From IMG/VR virus record IMGVR_UViG_2740892230_000037: a stretch of DNA of 7,979 nt; one strand, written 5' to 3'. Below are positions 1-7,027 of the stretch, piece by piece. The notes below the pieces were generated by a model. That model was not told the DNA's origin. It did not search any database and saw nothing but the letters and a program-made list of their open reading frames with translations. Position numbers and translations under genes: made by a program. Source of the stretch: a virus (Duplodnaviria; Heunggongvirae; Uroviricota; Caudoviricetes). The first letter of the stretch is position 1. The number at the start of each line of letters is the position of its first letter.

Positions 1-1020
1 CTACTTGCTAACCACGAGCGGCAAATCCAGTGTTGGTGTGATTTTTGTTTTACGATCGTAAATCAACACCTGATTTTCTGTTTTATGCCCGCTGAAAATT
101 TGTTTGTCGCGACTGCTGCCTTCGTAATCTGAGATCCCCTTGGCTTTTATGTCGTGAAAATTGCACCCGAACGGAACGCCAACTTTTTGCTCGGCTGCGC
201 GTTTAGCCTGATTCCACCAGTTATTCAGCGTTTTAGCTATGACTTTCCCGCCTTTGGTTGTATTGATCACATATTCGCATGTACAGGAAGATACATTTCG
301 GGCTAACTGGATCGCTGTACGTAATCGCGGTGACCATTCCTTGATTTGTTTGGTGCCGGTTTTGTTTTGCTCAATGTAGATCCCTTTATCCATAATATCC
401 TGCCATTTCAACTCAAGCACATCACCGAGTCTTGCCGCACAGAGATAGGAAATCTCCATTGCAATGCGTAACTGTGGAATTGCTTCCGCATATATCGCCG
501 CATACTGTTCATCGGTGATGTAAACAGTGCGGGCTTTAAGAGAGAATTTTCTGACTCCTTTGCATGGGTTATTCTTCACATACCCACGCTCATATCCCCA
601 CCCGTATACTCGACTCAGGCTTGCCAGTTCATGATTTGCCTGGGTCTTGCTCTCAAGCCCTCGTTTATCCATGAAAATTCTTACCTGCTCAGTTTTGACA
701 TTATCAGCAAGCACTTTTCCGAATACCATCAGCAACGCCTTCTGATGTTGTCGATAATCTTTTTGGGTTCGGGGGGCCAGTTCTGTAAATGCAGGGGAGT
801 CCATAAACATGTGCCATAATTTAGCTACGGTCATTATGTTGTGGAGTTTTGCTTTTTCCAGTTCATAATTTTGCCAGACTTTAGCTACGCTGGTTTTCCG
901 CACTCTTCCTAGCCCTATACTTCTTGTACTTCCTTCGGGTTTCCACACGTAACTGTAACCATTCGATCTAACCCGCGGTGGCAGTACATTATCTTTTTTA
1001 TTTTTTCTTGGTCTTCCCAT
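1..1020 (-). CDS. int: Tyrosine site-specific integrase, lambda Int family (complete, 339 aa)
   Basis: Uninterrupted minus-strand ORF with ATG at 1018-1020 and TAG at 1-3. Basic N-terminal segment (MGRPRKNKKDNVLPPRVRSNGYSY) and C-terminal FHDIKAKG...SGHKTENQVLIYDRK tail follow the layout of lambda Int, including a Tyr in the expected catalytic position. Its start is overlapped by the upstream small ORF, as in lambda xis-int. Confidence 0.92.
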   Translation of the reverse strand: MGRPRKNKKDNVLPPRVRSNGYSYVWKPEGSTRSIGLGRVRKTSVAKVWQNYELEKAKLHNIMTVAKLWHMFMDSPAFTELAPRTQKDYRQHQKALLMVFGKVLADNVKTEQVRIFMDKRGLESKTQANHELASLSRVYGWGYERGYVKNNPCKGVRKFSLKARTVYITDEQYAAIYAEAIPQLRIAMEISYLCAARLGDVLELKWQDIMDKGIYIEQNKTGTKQIKEWSPRLRTAIQLARNVSSCTCEYVINTTKGGKVIAKTLNNWWNQAKRAAEQKVGVPFGCNFHDIKAKGISDYEGSSRDKQIFSGHKTENQVLIYDRKTKITPTLDLPLVVSK

Positions 1021-1330
1021 TGTTCAGCGCCTCAAAATCGGGTTCAGCAGAAACCAGTTCAGATGTTTTTGGCATCGTTGTCAGACCGTGTGGAATATCC
1101 CTGCGGAGAACTATGGGTTCGTTTTTAGGGCCGATTACAAATGGGATGCCGTGCAGTCTTAACTNNNNNNNNNNTCCGTGTGGAATATCCCTGCGTAGAA
1201 CTATTGGTTCGTTTTTAGGACCGATTACAAATGGGATGCCGTGCAGTCTTAACTGGTGTTGCTGTTTTGTGTATCGCTCGTATTTCGTGATCTCTTTAAT
1301 CTCTGCTGGAGATAGAGTTAATTCGTACAT
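998..1330 (-). CDS. xis: Excisionase-like small protein; the true product is probably about 80 aa because the ORF crosses gap 1165-1174 and contains a duplicated block
   Basis: ATG at 1328-1330 (MYELTLSPAEIK...) and a lysine-rich C-terminus (NNGKTKKK) that overlaps the int start by 23 nt. Position, size and overlap match lambda-type xis. The 26-aa block LRLHGIPFVIGPKNEPIVLRRDIPHG is encoded twice, on either side of the N run. Confidence 0.55.
   Translation of the reverse strand: MYELTLSPAEIKEITKYERYTKQQHQLRLHGIPFVIGPKNEPIVLRRDIPHGXXXXLRLHGIPFVIGPKNEPIVLRRDIPHGLTTMPKTSELVSAEPDFEALNNGKTKKK
1081..1258. repeat. Two copies of an 84-bp xis segment separated by N10 (1165-1174)
   Basis: 1081-1164 and 1175-1258 align base for base with 3 substitutions, all synonymous in the minus-strand xis frame (ctc/cta, ccc/cca, ggc/ggt). 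Confidence 0.9.
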
Positions 1331-1397
1331 GTGGTCACGTGCCTTTACAGCATGACCGCCGCCACTATAGCTGGTGGGCGGCGATATGGGTTGAACA

Positions 1398-1570
1398 TTA
1401 AAAATCAGCCTGACTCGGGATCAGTTTTTGCCAGATAGCTGAAACGTATTTTGCCTGATAACGGGCGTCATCAAGTGCATTATGGCGCTCACCTTCGAAT
1501 GGGATAGCAGTTCTGGCATCGAAGTCTATGGCTTTCCCCAGCTCAACGATTGTGCGTACATCGCGATCGT
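1398..1570 (-). CDS. DEDDh 3'-5' exonuclease, C-terminal fragment with stop (allele 1)
   Basis: Minus-frame translation DRDVRTIVELGKAIDFDARTAIPFEGERHNALDDARYQAKYVSAIWQKLIPSQADF ending at the stop at 1398-1400. Contains the Exo III motif H-x-A-x-x-D-A (HNALDDA). Truncated upstream by gap 1571-1580. Confidence 0.7.
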
Positions 1571-1580
1571 NNNNNNNNNN

Positions 1581-1843
1581 GCAGTTTTTGCCAGATGGCT
1601 GAAACGTATTTCGCCTGGTAACGTGCATCGTTCAGAGCGTTATGGCGTTCACCTTCGAATGGAATAGTCGTTCTTGCGTCGAAATCCATCACCAGTCCCA
1701 GAGCAACCATCGTTCTTACATCGCGATCATTGGTGTAACGCCACGGGCAGGGGATCCCCTGCCGTTCATATGAACGGCGTAAAATCACGTTGTCGAAAGT
1801 TGCACCGTCACCCCAGACCTGAACAAAAAATTCACCGGAGTTT
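1581..1843 (-). CDS. DEDDh 3'-5' exonuclease, internal to C-terminal fragment (allele 2)
   Basis: In-frame translation NSGEFFVQVWGDGATFDNVILRRSYERQGIPCPWRYTNDRDVRTMVALGLVMDFDARTTIPFEGERHNALNDARYQAKYVSAIWQKL. Carries an Exo II-like FD motif (GATFDNVIL) and Exo III (HNALNDA). Bounded by N runs on both sides. Confidence 0.7.
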
Positions 1844-1853
1844 NNNNNNNNNN

Positions 1854-2192
1854 CTGCGCTTCACGTGATTGCTTCAGCCACCATTTAATGACGTCACGAT
1901 CAATGACTCCGCCAGCAGTATCCAGATCGATGGTCTTGCTAAATTCTGGTCCCATATCTCCGGTTTGCGGATCGAAAAATATTGCGCCTATTGAGATAAT
2001 CGGGGCATCGGGATTTTTTCCCATGGTTTCAAGGTCGATCATCAGATGAATCCCCGCTCTGCTGGTGGATGTGAGCTTATGATGACCATTCACCTTAATT
2101 AAGGGATCTGTCGCCTCGCCAGTTTTATTATCGCTGGCGTGATGCTGATTGCCGCCAGGGTTCTCCTTGTGTGGATGTTCAGCGCCTTCCAT
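1854..2192 (-). CDS. DEDDh 3'-5' exonuclease, N-terminal fragment with His-rich leader (allele A)
   Basis: ATG at 2190-2192; [21 protein letters not shown]...NGHHKLTSTSRAGIHLMIDLETMGKNPDAPIISIGAIFFDPQTGDMGPEFSKTIDLDTAGGVIDRDVIKWWLKQSREAQ. Exo I motif D-x-E (MIDLETMG). Truncated downstream by gap 1844-1853. Confidence 0.7.
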
Positions 2193-2203
2193 TNNNNNNN
2201 NNN

Positions 2204-2527
2204 TTGCGCTTCGCGTGATTGCTTAAGCCACCATTTAATGGTGTCCCGATCAATGACTCCGCCAGCAGTTTCCAGATCGATAGTCTTACTAAATTCCGGT
2301 CCCATATCTCCGGTTTGCGGATCGAAAAATATTGCGCCTATTGAGATAATCGGGGCATCGGGATTTTTTCCCATGGTTTCAAGGTCGATCATCAGATGAA
2401 TCCCCGCTCTGCTGGTGGATGTGAGATTATGATGACCGTTCGCCTTAATTAAGGGATCTGACGCCTCGCCAGTTTCACTATCGCTGGCATGATGCTGATT
2501 GCCGCCAGTGTTCTCCTTGTGCTGATG
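2204..2527 (-). CDS. DEDDh exonuclease N-terminal fragment (allele B, about 95 percent nucleotide identity to 1854-2192)
   Basis: Same frame and motifs (…[99 protein letters not shown]). Bounded by N runs. Confidence 0.65.
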
Positions 2528-2537
2528 NNNNNNNNNN

Positions 2538-2732
2538 GATCGGGGCATCAGGATTTTTTCCCATGGTTTCAAGGTCGATCATTAGATGGTTACACGTCCT
2601 GCTGGTGGATGTGATTTCTTGATGACCGTTCACCTTAATTGAGTGATCTGCCGTCTCGCCAGTTTCATTATCGCTATCGTGATGCTGATTGCCGCCAGTG
2701 TTCTCCTTGTGTGGATGTTCAGCGCCTTCCAT
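2538..2732 (-). CDS. DEDDh exonuclease N-terminal fragment (allele C)
   Basis: ATG at 2730-2732; [65 protein letters not shown]. The 33 nt preceding gap 2734-2743 are identical to the 33 nt preceding gap 2194-2203. Confidence 0.6.
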
Positions 2733-2744
2733 TNNNNNNNNNNC

Positions 2745-2885
2745 ACACGTCCTGCTGGTGGATGTGATAACGTGATGACCGTTCACCGTAATTAAGGGAT
2801 CTGCCGTCTCGCCAGTTTCACTATCGCTGGCGTGATCCTGAGCGCTACCAGCATTCTCCTTGTGTGGATGTTCAGCGCCTTCCAT
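2745..2885 (-). CDS. DEDDh exonuclease N-terminal leader fragment (allele D)
   Basis: ATG at 2883-2885; [47 protein letters not shown]. It is in the same frame as, and 57 nt downstream of, the amber stop of the zinc-ribbon ORF at 2940-2942. Confidence 0.6.
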
Positions 2886-2939
2886 TTCCTTCGGATCATC
2901 TTCCTGAACTTCAACCTGATACTCTTCATCGAATGTTTC

Positions 2940-3085
2940 CTAGTATGTTGCGTCGCCCATCACCGCGCCACAATCAGGGCAGTTGCCGCCGCCGGTCTGA
3001 CCGCAGGCGGTGCAGACTTTTTCCACTTCCTGTTGCGCCACTGGTTCAGGCTGTTTCGTTTCTGGCTCGTTTTGTAACGCATTTG
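2940..3085 (-). CDS. C-terminal end of zinc-ribbon protein (Q/E/P linker plus CxxC-x9-CxxC), ending in TAG
   Basis: In-frame translation ...[47 protein letters not shown] then the TAG stop at 2940-2942. 5' side truncated by gap 3086-3095. Confidence 0.65.
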
Positions 3086-3095
3086 NNNNNNNNNN

Positions 3096-3284
3096 CCATC
3101 GAATATTTCCTGGTATGTTGCGTCACCCATCACCGCACCACAATCAGGGCAGTTGCCGCCACCGCTCTGACCGCAGGCGGTGCAGATCTTTTCCGGTTCC
3201 TGTTGCACTACTGGTTCAGGTTGTTTCGTTTCTGGCTCGTTTTGTTGCGTATTTGGGCTGTTTTGTTCCGCTTTCTGGTCGTTC
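3096..3284 (-). CDS. Zinc-ribbon module, allele with CAG (Gln) in place of the amber stop, reading through toward the exonuclease leader
   Basis: [63 protein letters not shown], with no stop before gap 3086-3095. The CAG codon at 3110-3112 aligns to the TAG at 2940-2942. Confidence 0.6.
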
Positions 3285-3294
3285 NNNNNNNNNN

Positions 3295-3450
3295 AGTTCC
3301 GTTCCGATTCATGCTGGTTCTGGTTTACAGAATCGCGGGTCTGGATCCCCTTAACCCATTTCGGATCATTCGGGTCGCTAATCCCTGCAACAAATTCTCC
3401 GCGAGAGGCAGCAAGCAACTTATCGGCGTCAGGCTGGCTGATATTGGCTG
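3295..3450 (-). CDS. Shared module fragment ([51 protein letters not shown])
   Basis: In-frame minus-strand translation. The same module, with substitutions, sits at the C-terminal end of the 4609-6133 ORF and in 3461-3712. Confidence 0.6.
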
Positions 3451-3460
3451 NNNNNNNNNN

Positions 3461-4405
3461 TCAACAAATTCACCACGTGATACTGCAAGCAGTTCATCGG
3501 CGTCAGGCTGGCTGATATTGGCTGCCTGCATAATTTTCTTTACTTCGTCAGCGGTAACTTTTACCGGTTCTGGTTGTTCAGAATTTTGTGCGGTATTTGC
3601 ATTTTGCGGTAAGCCTGTGTATGTGCCATTTTTTCGGGCAAAATATTCTTCTTTTGTGATTTCAGTAGCCCCGGCAGCCAGCGCCTTATCCAGACCAGAA
3701 AGTTTGTTTGCGNNNNNNNNNNACGTGCGAAGTATTCCTCTTTTGTGATTTCCGTAGCTCCCAGGGCCAGTGCTTTTTCCAGACCAGAAAATTTGTTTGC
3801 GCGACCGTATTTTTCGCCATCCTTGTCGGTGAAGAGGAAGTAGAACGGCCCCTCACGCTCTACAGATGGTTCGACTTCCACTTTGCATTCGGTTTTTTCG
3901 TTGTCCGGAATTGCCGTTTCCACTGCATCAGTTTCTGGTACTGNNNNNNNNNNAGCTTCCGGCGCGGTTTCATTTTTTGGGATATCAGATACCTCAGTTT
4001 CCACTGCATCAGTTTGTGTTTCTGATGACTGGAGAACATCAACAGTGCCCAGGTCTGTTTCTTCATTCTCAAACACGCCCTTTGTCGTCAGGTATTCGCA
4101 GATATATTTGTTCAGTGCTACGGGATCTTTGTGAATGTNNNNNNNNNNTGACGGGAGAGTACCAGCTGTGCCCTGATTTGTTCCTTCGTCATCTTCAAAC
4201 ACGCCCTTGGTAGTCAGGTATTCAGTGATGTATTTGTTCAGTGCTACGGGATCTTTGTGAATGTCGATCGGACGCTCACGGACAAGGCCAAAAATAGTCT
4301 GACGGTCGTAGCGAACGGCATCGGGTTGTTTGCGCATTGATGCGGAAATGCGCTTCCAGTCTTCGCGATCTTTGTCGATAACTTCATTTTTTGCCCAGCG
4401 ATGGA
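3461..4405 (-). CDS. Four gap-separated fragments (3461-3712, 3723-3943, 3954-4138, 4149-4405) of one or more paralogues with a different N-terminal domain joined to the same shared module
   Basis: Translations: (4149-4405) ...HRWAKNEVIDKDREDWKRISASMRKQPDAVRYDRQTIFGLVRERPIDIHKDPVALNKYITEYLTTKGVFEDDEG...; (3954-4138) IHKDPVALNKYICEYLTTKGVFENEETDLG...; (3723-3943) ...VEREGPFYFLFTDKDGEKYGRANKFSGLEKALALGATEITKEEYFAR; (3461-3712) [83 protein letters not shown]. Adjacent fragments overlap as divergent alleles. Confidence 0.55.
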
Positions 4406-4415
4406 NNNNNNNNNN

Positions 4416-4598
4416 CTTTTTCCGGTTCCTGTTGCGCTACTGGCTCAGGTTGTTTCGTTTCTGGCTCGTTTTGTAACGCATTTGGGCTGTTTTGTTCCGC
4501 TTTCTGGCTGTTTTGTTCCGCTTTCTGGCCGTTCTGTTCCGTTTCTTGCTGGTTCTGATTCACTGAATCGCGGGTTTCAATCCCCTTCACCCATTTCG
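4416..4598 (-). CDS. Linker fragment of the shared module, containing a 21-bp tandem repeat
   Basis: [60 protein letters not shown], bounded by gaps on both sides. Confidence 0.55.
4464..4548. repeat. 21-bp tandem repeat (unit gctgttttgttccgctttctg, 2 perfect plus 2 degenerate copies) encoding QKAEQNS heptads
   Basis: Perfect units at 4486-4506 and 4507-4527, degenerate units on either side. Further copies of the unit lie at 3256-3276 and near 3061-3085, next to gaps. Confidence 0.85.
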
Positions 4599-4608
4599 NN
4601 NNNNNNNN

Positions 4609-6133
4609 CGTTCCGTTCCGATTCATGCTGGTTCTGGTTCACAGAATCGCGAGTCTGGATCCCCTTGACCCATTTCGGATCATTAGGGTCGCTAATCCCC
4701 TCAACAAATTCACCACGCGATACAGCAAGTAACTTATCGGCGTCAGGCTGGCTGATATTGGCTGCCTGCATAATTTTGTTTACTTCGTCAGCGGTGACTT
4801 TTACTTGGTTAGCGGAACTCACTTGCGACTGAGCATCCAGCGACTGCGCGTTCTGGCCATGTTCAGTTGTATCCGGTTCCATTGTTTCAGTTGTTGCCTG
4901 TTCACCTGCCATTGCGTCAGATGGTTGTGGTTTTTCTTCTTCTGTTTCACGCTCAGTAACCACCTCGCGGTTAATTTCTTCCAGGATATCTTTTTCCGGC
5001 GTATGCCGGGCAGCTGTGAGAGTTTCCTTGCTGGGGTTCTCGTGATCAGTTTCCGTCAAATAGGCGTTGATATACCCCTGAAGGCGTCCCGGGTAGTGAT
5101 AAAATTCAGGGTGTGCGCTTCGGATAAGTGCAAAAATAGCGGCGCGGGAATAGTCCAGAATACCCGGGGTTGCACGAAGTGCTGCGGACCATTCTTTGAA
5201 CGGACTTTCTTTGTTCAGGACTACTTCTTTTGCGCGACGATAAACGCTGCCCGGAATTTCATAAATATTAAAATCCATCGGAAGTGTGGCTGCTGCAATC
5301 TCCACATCCAGTGTGTCGAGGGTGTGTACTAAATTCGGATTGCGATCGGTTTTGTTCCCACCGCCAGCATTAGCACCGGAAGCCGTGCGGGTGATGCGTG
5401 AAACACGATTTCCTTTCATCCACTCTTTTGTCAGCAGACCCCGATCAGTGTAGTCAGTGTCCAGGTATGCTTCGAAAAAAGCAGTTATTAGTCCCAGGTC
5501 TGAATTACCAGGATTAGGGAAAACTTTGTCAGTGTCACGAACCAGTTTGTGGAGGTCGCGAATCTCCAGCGAGTCGAGCAGACTGGTTTTATGCGAAATA
5601 GCCAGGGCAGTAACAGCCGGTAGTTCTTCAGCCCGTGCAATGTGTAATGCCTGGAGTTCGTCGCGTGAAACGTGCGTTACTGATTTTTCGCTGCCGTGTT
5701 GAGCAAGCCAACGAATGGGCAGTTCCTGACCGGAGACAGGCAGAAGCATGCTCTCCTCAATCTCAGTCATGTCTTCGCCGTTGATGTTGGTATTGTCAGT
5801 GCTGGCTGGTTTGTCCTGAACAGAGGGGGAAGGGCCGATAAATGTCATTGTGATGCCATCTTTCCCGCCTTTTTCATAGCGGTTGCAGAATTCAGTATCA
5901 AACACGCCTTCTGGCGGAAGGTCGTCAACAACGGGCAAATTGACGCGGACGGGTTTTTTAAAGTCGTCTTCATCATAATCGTTGTCATCCATTGCGGTAA
6001 TGCAGCGGGAGATTGCAACAGATAATTTTTTTGCTGTAGTCCAGTAAAAACCACCTTTAATTCCTAGGCGTTTTCTTACTTTGTCATTTTTTGCTTCGCA
6101 ATATAGTGCAAATTCTTCTTTATCAGTGCTCAT
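4609..6133 (-). CDS. Large early-left protein, N-terminal 508 aa (5' complete, 3' cut by gap 4599-4608); tentatively RecE-N-terminal-like, possibly an intact counterpart of Qin-prophage ydfE
   Basis: ATG at 6131-6133 with a GAGG about 10 nt upstream; long protein-like ORF with an acidic TE-rich region. It ends in ...[56 protein letters not shown], the module that elsewhere continues into linker and zinc ribbon. The resemblance of its central region to the RecE N-terminal half is from memory only. Confidence 0.8.
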
Positions 6134-6226
6134 TATTGGTAAACCTCATCACAGATTTAAGGGTGAACAAATCTCTGCCATTGCTGACATATAAGAATGA
6201 AACTGGATATTTATTACGGTGCTGTT

Positions 6227-6418
6227 TTAAAATCCTGCCGGGATTTCGTTATTATCCTGGTGAATAACTTTATCGACCGGGTAACAGTTACCGGGAATTT
6301 TCTGTTCGGTTGCTGCAGTCACACACTCCTGCATTGTCCTGTGAACACTGACTGCAATATCAACTGGCTCTCCGGAAACAAGAAAAACTGTCAGAACAAG
6401 TGCAAATGCTGTATTCAT
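6227..6418 (-). CDS. ydfD: YdfD-like small lysis protein with a hydrophobic N-terminus (63 aa)
   Basis: ATG at 6416-6418 overlaps the dicB stop as ATGA; MNTAFALVLTVFLVSGEPVDIAVSVHRTMQECVTAATEQKIPGNCYPVDKVIHQDNNEIPAGF. It sits immediately downstream of dicB, as in the Qin prophage of E. coli K-12. Confidence 0.7.
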   Translation of the reverse strand: MNTAFALVLTVFLVSGEPVDIAVSVHRTMQECVTAATEQKIPGNCYPVDKVIHQDNNEIPAGF

Positions 6419-6569
6419 TGCCAGCATCCTTTTTGTATCGGACGTAAACGGGCCAGCATTGAAAGAATGCATATTTTATTTAATAGCTCCCGTTCGTGTT
6501 TTCTCTTGTTAATGGCATCTTCAGTAAATACAGGGTTACTGATAGTGACACCAATTTCAAAACAACCTT
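6415..6569 (-). CDS. dicB: dicB allele 1, C-terminal fragment (5' cut by gap 6570-6579)
   Basis: ...GCFEIGVTISNPVFTEDAINKRKHERELLNKICILSMLARLRPIQKGCWQ with stop at 6415-6417. About 90 percent nucleotide identity to 6606-6760. Confidence 0.7.
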
Positions 6570-6605: not shown

Positions 6606-6794
6606 TCATTGTGCACATCCTTTTGGCATCAGACGTAAACGGGCCAGCATTGAAACAATGCATACTTTATTTAATAACTCCCGTTCGTGTTTTCTTTTGT
6701 TAATGGCATCTTCAGTAAATACAGGATTACTGATAGTGACACCAATTTCAAAACAACCTTCAGACGTATTAACGTTTGGTAATAACGTTTCCAT
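6606..6794 (-). CDS. dicB: DicB cell-division inhibitor (complete, 62 aa)
   Basis: ATG at 6792-6794 with GAGGA 7 nt upstream; METLLPNVNTSEGCFEIGVTISNPVFTEDAINKRKHERELLNKVCIVSMLARLRLMPKGCAQ. The stop overlaps the ATG of a second ydfD allele (6580-6609, cut by the gap). DicF lies 180 nt upstream on the same strand. Confidence 0.8.
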   Translation of the reverse strand: METLLPNVNTSEGCFEIGVTISNPVFTEDAINKRKHERELLNKVCIVSMLARLRLMPKGCAQ

Positions 6795-6969: not shown

Positions 6970-7012
6970 AAAAAGGGCGGCAGAGCAGTCACGGAGTAAA
7001 ACTGATACCGCC
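6970..7012 (-). terminator. Intrinsic terminator forming the DicF 3' end
   Basis: GC-rich stem (GGCGGUA...UGCCGCC) followed by five U on the minus-strand transcript (A run at plus 6970-6974). Confidence 0.65.
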
Positions 7013-7027
7013 AAACGTCACCAGAAA
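6975..7027 (-). ncRNA. dicF: DicF small RNA (ftsZ-targeting sRNA of the dicB operon)
   Basis: Reverse complement of 6975-7027 reads TTTCTGGTGACGTTTGGCGGTATCAGTTTTACTCCGTGACTGCTCTGCCGCCC followed by TTTTT, which matches the 53-nt DicF sequence as I recall it, and it lies directly upstream of dicB. Confidence 0.8.

Follow-up and report, generated by a model that had tools for sequence, protein, structure and literature searches.

A 21-nt coding repeat of variable copy number in the inter-domain linker of a putative prophage exonuclease

We analysed a stretch of 7,979 bases (hereafter the window) from the IMG/VR virus record IMGVR_UViG_2740892230_000037 (Caudoviricetes). The window is made up of 16 pieces linked by 15 runs of exactly ten N (N10), and the pieces within 1175-6569 are overlapping parts of differing versions of a single minus-strand gene. 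This gene is a mosaic lambdoid-prophage 'exonuclease', in which a RecE-like N-terminus is followed by a conserved module, a linker of heptads, a zinc ribbon and a PF16473 nuclease domain; complete genomes carry it annotated as 'exonuclease' or '3'-5' exoribonuclease domain-containing protein', with a length of 814-830 amino acids (aa). The subject of this report is a 21-nucleotide (nt) repeat within the linker, whose copy number differs between alleles.

On the 830-codon gene of Escherichia coli 55989, the pieces within 1175-6569 align repeatedly to the same codons, with identities of 79-100%. Only three pieces of the window (1-1164, 1581-1843 and 4416-4598) are 100% identical to E. coli 55989, and 4416-4598 is also 100% identical to E. 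coli O111:H21 15A. Piece 3096-3284 is found at 100% identity in many complete genomes, and pieces 2744-3085 and 4609-6569 have no exact match among 5,426 complete E. coli genomes (best 98.2% and 99.7%, respectively). Because the pieces overlap on the gene and only some are 100% identical to any one complete genome, the 'alleles' of the window are fragments of paralogs or mosaic versions set side by side across N10 gaps, and not one contiguous locus.

The repeat unit and its periodic tract

The unit gctgttttgttccgctttctg is present as exact copies at 3257-3277, 4486-4506 and 4507-4527. Its reverse complement, CAGAAAGCGGAACAAAACAGC, encodes QKAEQNS in the sole open minus-strand frame of fragments 4416-4598 and 3096-3284. 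The former fragment carries two copies and the latter one, each flanked by degenerate heptads, as follows.

4582-4596, minus strand: KWVKG, last residues of the upstream conserved module (two-copy fragment); 4581 is the first linker position
4423-4569, minus strand: full heptad tract of the two-copy allele, with 21-nt periodicity (DSVNQNQ/QETEQNG/QKAEQNS x2/PNALQNE/PETKQPE/PVAQQEP)
4528-4548, minus strand: degenerate unit QETEQNG, 16/21 identical to the QKAEQNS unit
4486-4527, minus strand: two perfect tandem units, QKAEQNS QKAEQNS, within an exact lag-21 tract of 45 nt
4465-4485, minus strand: degenerate unit PNALQNE, 13/21 identical to the QKAEQNS unit
4444-4464, minus strand: degenerate unit PETKQPE
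4423-4443, minus strand: degenerate unit PVAQQEP
3257-3277, minus strand: lone exact QKAEQNS unit of a second allele fragment, preceded by ...ND at 3278-3283, hence exactly one copy
3194-3256, minus strand: degenerate heptads PNTQQNE/PETKQPE/PVVQQEP of the one-copy fragment
3024-3083, minus strand: third allele fragment, NALQNE/PETKQPE/PVAQQEV, beginning inside the PNALQNE unit (contig end at 3085)

The units thus stand head to tail inside an open reading frame (ORF) and have a length that is a multiple of three. This agrees with the initial annotation, which had described an intragenic 21-bp repeat encoding QKAEQNS and had placed it, correctly, in the linker between the shared module (KVTADEV...) and the zinc ribbon CxxCG...CxxCG. 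The repeat it described is real, but two of its positions (3256-3276 and 4464) are each one base off, and what it took for a partial copy at 3061-3085 is in fact the adjacent PNALQNE unit (3066-3083 and one truncated codon); the contig that bears it stops 2 nt before a QKAEQNS unit could start.

The periodicity extends beyond the perfect copies. Although the units are just 10-16/21 identical to each other in DNA, Tandem Repeats Finder reports a period of 21 with 4.9 copies (score 118) at 4450-4551 and with 3.0 copies at 3221-3283. Self-identity at lag 21 is 0.67, and still 0.61 after removal of one exact copy, versus ~0.3 at the remaining in-frame lags; 5000 codon shuffles yielded no values as high as these. 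Since the lag-21 signal stays beyond chance without one perfect copy, even the one-copy allele is an old 21-nt array; the degenerate tract that holds the unit comprises six to seven heptads.

Copy number and linker length among alleles

On near-identical linker DNA, the number of QKAEQNS units is zero in locus L096, a 65-kb NCBI contig (linker of 42 aa), one in L006 (49 aa) and two in L005, E. coli 55989 and the window (56 aa). Copy number therefore differs between otherwise alike alleles and changes the length of the linker, as had been proposed from the window itself. Nor is the repeat number equal among finished genomes: 55989 and O111:H21 15A have two copies and most of the others one. The condition named in the initial annotation for its refutation, one repeat number shared by all alleles, thus does not hold.

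Across protein clusters, the linker measures 21-56 aa, most often 49 aa, and the changes are not confined to one unit. Locus L015 has a perfect duplication of another 21-nt string (GAACGGAACTACCAAAAAGCG x2, encoding NYQKAER-NYQKAEQ), other clusters have perfect 21-nt duplications encoding SPNALQN x2 or PNALQNE x2, and in-frame deletions with differing junctions have produced linkers of 21, 35 and 42 aa. With duplications in four registers or units and at least six distinct deletion junctions, independent events have recurred in this tract. A few linkers (24, 43 and 50 aa) do not differ from 49 by a multiple of 7, yet all variants of 21-56 aa stay in frame through the zinc ribbon. In P0241 (linker of 51 aa), NQNQ has become NQNQNQ by 6 nt just upstream of the heptads, apparently in a separate small slippage. 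Because 21 = 3×7 and the frame is always kept, we regard the variation as length polymorphism and not as phase variation; with a 21-nt unit, the copy changes neither shift the frame nor switch expression in the manner of a contingency locus.

The region is present in 4,729 of 5,426 complete E. coli genomes, only two of which (55989 and O111:H21 15A) have the exact two-copy allele. Exact pattern scans for repeat copies in contigs found the same allele in three IMG/VR viral contigs and one metagenome contig, but in none of the GTDB species representatives. It is likewise absent from 30 phage records, and one protein cluster (127 partial sequences) carries it. Three exact copies were seen in no viral contig, and the lone metagenome contig that matches the two-copy pattern has no third copy; no allele with more than two identical units was found. 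The 49-aa linker prevails in each sample: among the 120 best protein clusters, it is found in 109 (56 aa in 9 and 42 aa in 2), among IMG/VR and other loci in 77 of 81, and the one-copy length occurs in all 51 evenly sampled complete genomes, at the best-matching place of each. At 50% identity, 64 of 1.84 billion representatives match, with linkers of 29, 35, 49 and 51 aa and no expansion beyond 51 aa. The two-copy allele was seen in three flanking contexts.

Gene neighbourhood, domains and variant architectures

In lambdoid prophages, which occupy several integration sites, the gene is flanked by dicB/DUF1482 on one side and xis/int on the other, in the order dicF-dicB-DUF1482-[gene]-xis-int, and the window has a matching neighbourhood with the integrase at its low end, in the usual Qin-type arrangement dicF-dicB-ydfD-exonuclease-xis-int. 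Its remaining features are listed below.

6975-7026, minus strand: DicF small RNA (RF00039, 76.7 bits), upstream of dicB
6606-6794, minus strand: dicB
6227-6472, minus strand: DUF1482/ydfD ORF
4610-6133, minus strand: N-terminal 508 codons, RecE-like, with PF06630 Exonuc_VIII at aa 57-189
4661-4801, minus strand: conserved module at the end of the large N-terminal fragment, with 17 further residues at 4610-4660
3137-3184, minus strand: four-Cys zinc ribbon of the one-copy fragment, directly downstream of the linker (weak DZR match)
2967-3014, minus strand: zinc ribbon of the third fragment
1581-2733, minus strand: four overlapping allele fragments of the C-terminal part
N10 gaps, start positions: 1165, 1571, 1844, 2194, 2528, 2734, 3086, 3285, 3451, 3713, 3944, 4139, 4406, 4599 and 6570

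The ORF at 4610-6133 matches PF06630 at 5.1e-36 (124.9 bits, cut-off 25) and is 58% identical to residues 50-497 of K-12 RecE; the 55989 allele has an N-terminus that differs from this RecE-like one. At the other end of the gene, the three scanned fragments (1581-1843, 1854-2193 and 2204-2527) match PF16473 (Rv2179c-like/DexA-like 3'-5' exonuclease) with 84-101 bits (cut-off 27), and not a PD-(D/E)XK 5'-3' nuclease domain; the full-length 55989 protein matches PF16473 at 5.5e-65 (218.8 bits). The fourth fragment, 2538-2733, contains the acidic spacer and runs into the beginning of the PF16473 domain (…LMIDLETMGKNPDAPI). A PADLOC scan gave only a weak generic DEDDh match, and we do not claim membership in a defence system.

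Zinc-ribbon residues C313, C316 and C327 never vary in alignment A1, where C324 is kept in at least 90% of rows. Several alleles that are otherwise intact (P0033, P0035-P0042, from Shigella/E. coli clusters; coding sequence of L004) have Y or S in place of zinc-ribbon cysteines, which suggests that the zinc ribbon is decaying in some lineages. In fragment 2744-3085 of the window, a minus-strand TAG at 2940-2942 forms an in-frame stop (GDATY-stop-ETFDEE) where the sister fragment has CAG (Gln); this fragment represents a pseudogene version of the gene.

Other architectures occur around the linker. In L094 (1118-4102; metagenome-assembled genome CTSoil_132), P0280 and P0283, the N-terminal modules run to …DPNDPKW and are followed by a RecE-type PD-(D/E)XK nuclease, without the heptad linker and zinc ribbon, a domain swap right at the linker start. 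In P0183, P0204 and P0294, a short hydrophobic C-terminus (…VVIAAVYGLCANPAGIASAPLIPGIAMMIANKLENFG…) replaces the nuclease domain after the acidic tail (or after KW). P0260 (703 aa) keeps the RecE N-terminal region as far as the middle of the zinc ribbon (…ACNACGQTGGD) and continues in unrelated sequence, SALGHAYLLPFGNKNEK…, which resembles RecT; an internal deletion seems to have joined recE to the following gene. Partial BLAST matches that start inside the array were considered as a mosaic junction and rejected, the three loci concerned being ordinary one-copy alleles with homologous upstream modules.

The initial annotation had further named the array as the likely cause of several contig breaks, which our results do not support. 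Contig ends do fall at 3085, 3284, 3295 and 4609, within ~7 nt of the unit, and the contig of the large N-terminal fragment ends one codon before it. However, the two-copy array lies wholly inside one contig, flanked by 70-71 nt at either end, 11 of the 15 gaps are elsewhere in the gene, and the cut ends of partial proteins in public drafts are spread over residues ~300-755, with no pile-up at the linker. A single E. coli genome can contain as many as 7-9 paralogs of this mosaic gene region. Given the intact array, the position of most gaps and this number of copies per genome, we infer that breaks where paralogs converge or diverge account for the fragmentation more economically than the array.

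Origin of the length polymorphism and comparison with known systems

We consider the tract to be an old, degenerate 21-nt array in an inter-domain spacer, subject to ordinary in-frame length polymorphism by slippage or unequal exchange, and assign this reading a probability of about 0.8. The encoded spacer, rich in Q/E/N/P/K and probably unstructured, would connect the conserved module to the four-Cys zinc ribbon, which is followed by the C-terminal nuclease domain. Consistently, the polar composition of the 56-aa linker (79% Q/E/N/P/K/S/T, mean hydropathy -1.96), its net charge of -6 and the proline that starts three of its six units point to a flexible spacer and away from a coiled coil. Direct repeats 21 nt apart may permit slipped-strand mispairing or unequal exchange between units: the 7-nt sequence CGGAACA flanks the unit at 21-nt spacing in one-copy alleles and would be a suitable microhomology for slippage. 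Exchange could also take place between the several prophage paralogs within one genome. Each such event would gain or lose exact multiples of 21 nt, keeping the frame and altering spacer length alone, probably with nearly neutral effect, and the window allele would be a recent perfect duplication of QKAEQNS in a one-copy '…EQNG-QKAEQNS' allele. Amino-acid diversity is 0.096 in the linker, 0.059 in the module and 0.068 in the zinc ribbon, with equal synonymous diversity, which fits relaxed yet not absent constraint on the linker.

Several observations weigh against so simple an account. The amino-acid sequence QKAEQNS is almost invariant among close alleles, and the tract may for this reason not be a purely passive spacer. 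The strong dominance of the 49-aa length could reflect selection on length and not neutrality. The three contexts of the two-copy allele fit recombination around a single duplication, recurrence of the duplication being possible as well. Finally, disorder of the linker is not demonstrable from the AlphaFold2 model (35-sequence alignment), which is poor throughout (mean predicted local distance difference test score, pLDDT, 41.5), including the control exonuclease domain, and was not used as evidence.

Alternatively, the linker length might be tuned by selection, with the heptad tract acting as an adjustable spacer matched to the nuclease head or the oligomeric state. The surviving indels are all in frame and mostly whole heptads, one length is dominant, RecE-type alleles often have 35 aa, and two unrelated nucleases (RecE PD-(D/E)XK and PF16473 DEDD) follow a common module, linker and zinc ribbon. 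In-frame survival, however, is expected of any coding repeat, and PF16473-type proteins also occur with linkers of 35 and 42 aa (P0152 and P0148), so that length is not strictly bound to nuclease type; moreover, the variants are rare, and many are in decaying prophages with stop codons or lost cysteines. Tuning by length seems to us improbable. Its furthest-reaching form, a selected adjustable spacer and possibly preferred exchange zone that joins a common RecE-type N-terminal scaffold and zinc ribbon to interchangeable nuclease heads, is a long shot; if true, 7-residue slippage steps would adjust the geometry or oligomeric state and, through it, the choice of substrate, for instance in prophage-encoded defence against modified-DNA phages.

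A further alternative is that the 21-bp repeats work as DNA, either as protein-binding iterons or as a recombination hotspot for the exchange of nuclease modules, with coding being secondary. A length of 21 bp corresponds to two helical turns, the tract lies at the margin of a stretch over which recE and the PF16473-type gene share 87.6% identity, and domain swaps occur right at …DPNDPKW (L094, P0280, P0294). These swaps at KW are, however, upstream of the tract and remove it entirely, the units are too dissimilar in DNA (see above) to favour such a role, and conservation at the codon level fits protein constraint. Inverted repeats or known binding motifs were not seen, no search aimed at them having been made. 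We therefore consider a role at the DNA level very unlikely.

An equally poor case can be made for the copy-number difference being an artefact of short-read assembly at a tandem repeat. The window is indeed a collage of short contigs, and many of the database proteins spanning this region are incomplete and derived from contigs of 250-750 bp. Against this, the two-copy allele is present in 'complete genome'-level RefSeq records (55989 and O111:H21 15A), in independent viral and metagenome contigs and in the 127-member protein cluster, the zero-copy allele is on a long contig, and the exact repeat tract, at 45 nt, is below ordinary read length. Least credible of all is that the heptads form an alpha-helical coiled coil, a structural repeat instead of a spacer: despite the strict 7-residue periodicity across 6-7 units, no unit has hydrophobics at two fixed positions (as a and d positions would require), helix-breaking prolines open half of the units, the 56 aa include just five bulky hydrophobics (I, L and three V; none in QETEQNG or QKAEQNS), and the AlphaFold2 model, itself unreliable, shows no helix in the tract.

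The repeat is a real but ordinary feature of a known kind, an in-frame tandem-repeat polymorphism in an inter-domain spacer, and it involves no new mechanism or element. Its practical value is modest. The tract provides a precise length marker that stays in frame, in a prophage gene very common among E. coli, and the interval from module to zinc ribbon tolerates 21-56 residues, which is useful for dissecting the N-terminal two-thirds of RecE or DexA-like prophage exonucleases. Draft assemblies fragment and mix paralogs here, and 'alleles' taken from such scaffolds call for long-read confirmation. No publication that uses the locus for typing came to our notice; literature searches on Rv2179c with prophage and on exonuclease VIII with tandem repeat returned nothing relevant, and the repeat is undescribed as far as we found.

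Among known systems, in-frame coding minisatellites of bacteria and phages are similar in having head-to-tail units of a multiple of three, copy differences on the same background, recurrent independent events and a low-complexity inter-domain tract. They differ in that the tract described here has no more than two identical units (0-2 overall), the remainder being old and degenerate, and in that the protein is not surface-exposed or antigenic. Phase-variable simple-sequence loci likewise change copy number by slippage; here, in contrast, the unit is 21 nt long, there is neither frameshift nor ON/OFF switching, and just one or two identical units are present.

As for the nuclease domain, the only solved relative by sequence is T4 DexA (PDB 8KEL; E=8e-8 with the C-terminal domain, L001 6399-7004), which is a 227-residue chain in that structure and has neither a RecE-like N-terminus nor the heptad linker and zinc ribbon. 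A DexA homologue of E. coli, EcD (HAK9828821.1), is reported to degrade DNA containing 5-hydroxymethylcytosine (5hmC) and to protect against T4 (2025 paper, PMC12153337). EcD is presumably short too, since its Ala78 is equated with DexA Asp90, and would likewise lack these three parts. The residue at the DexA D90 position is Asp in the protein described here, versus the Ala described for EcD.

The nearest counterpart of the linker itself is in K-12 RecE (exonuclease VIII, Rac prophage), which has the PF06630 N-terminal region in common with the window allele and likewise has the module, heptad linker, zinc ribbon and acidic tail. The N-terminal part of RecE, which contains the linker region, has no known function according to a 2023 review (PMC11611040). 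In K-12 RecE, the module is followed by a 35-aa linker and then by CNACGQTGGDNCPDCG, with no QKAEQNS unit, and the protein ends in a PD-(D/E)XK 5'-3' nuclease (PF12684), whereas the window fragments end in PF16473. Because K-12 RecE has all three elements, the module, heptad linker and zinc ribbon are common to proteins with two unrelated nuclease heads.

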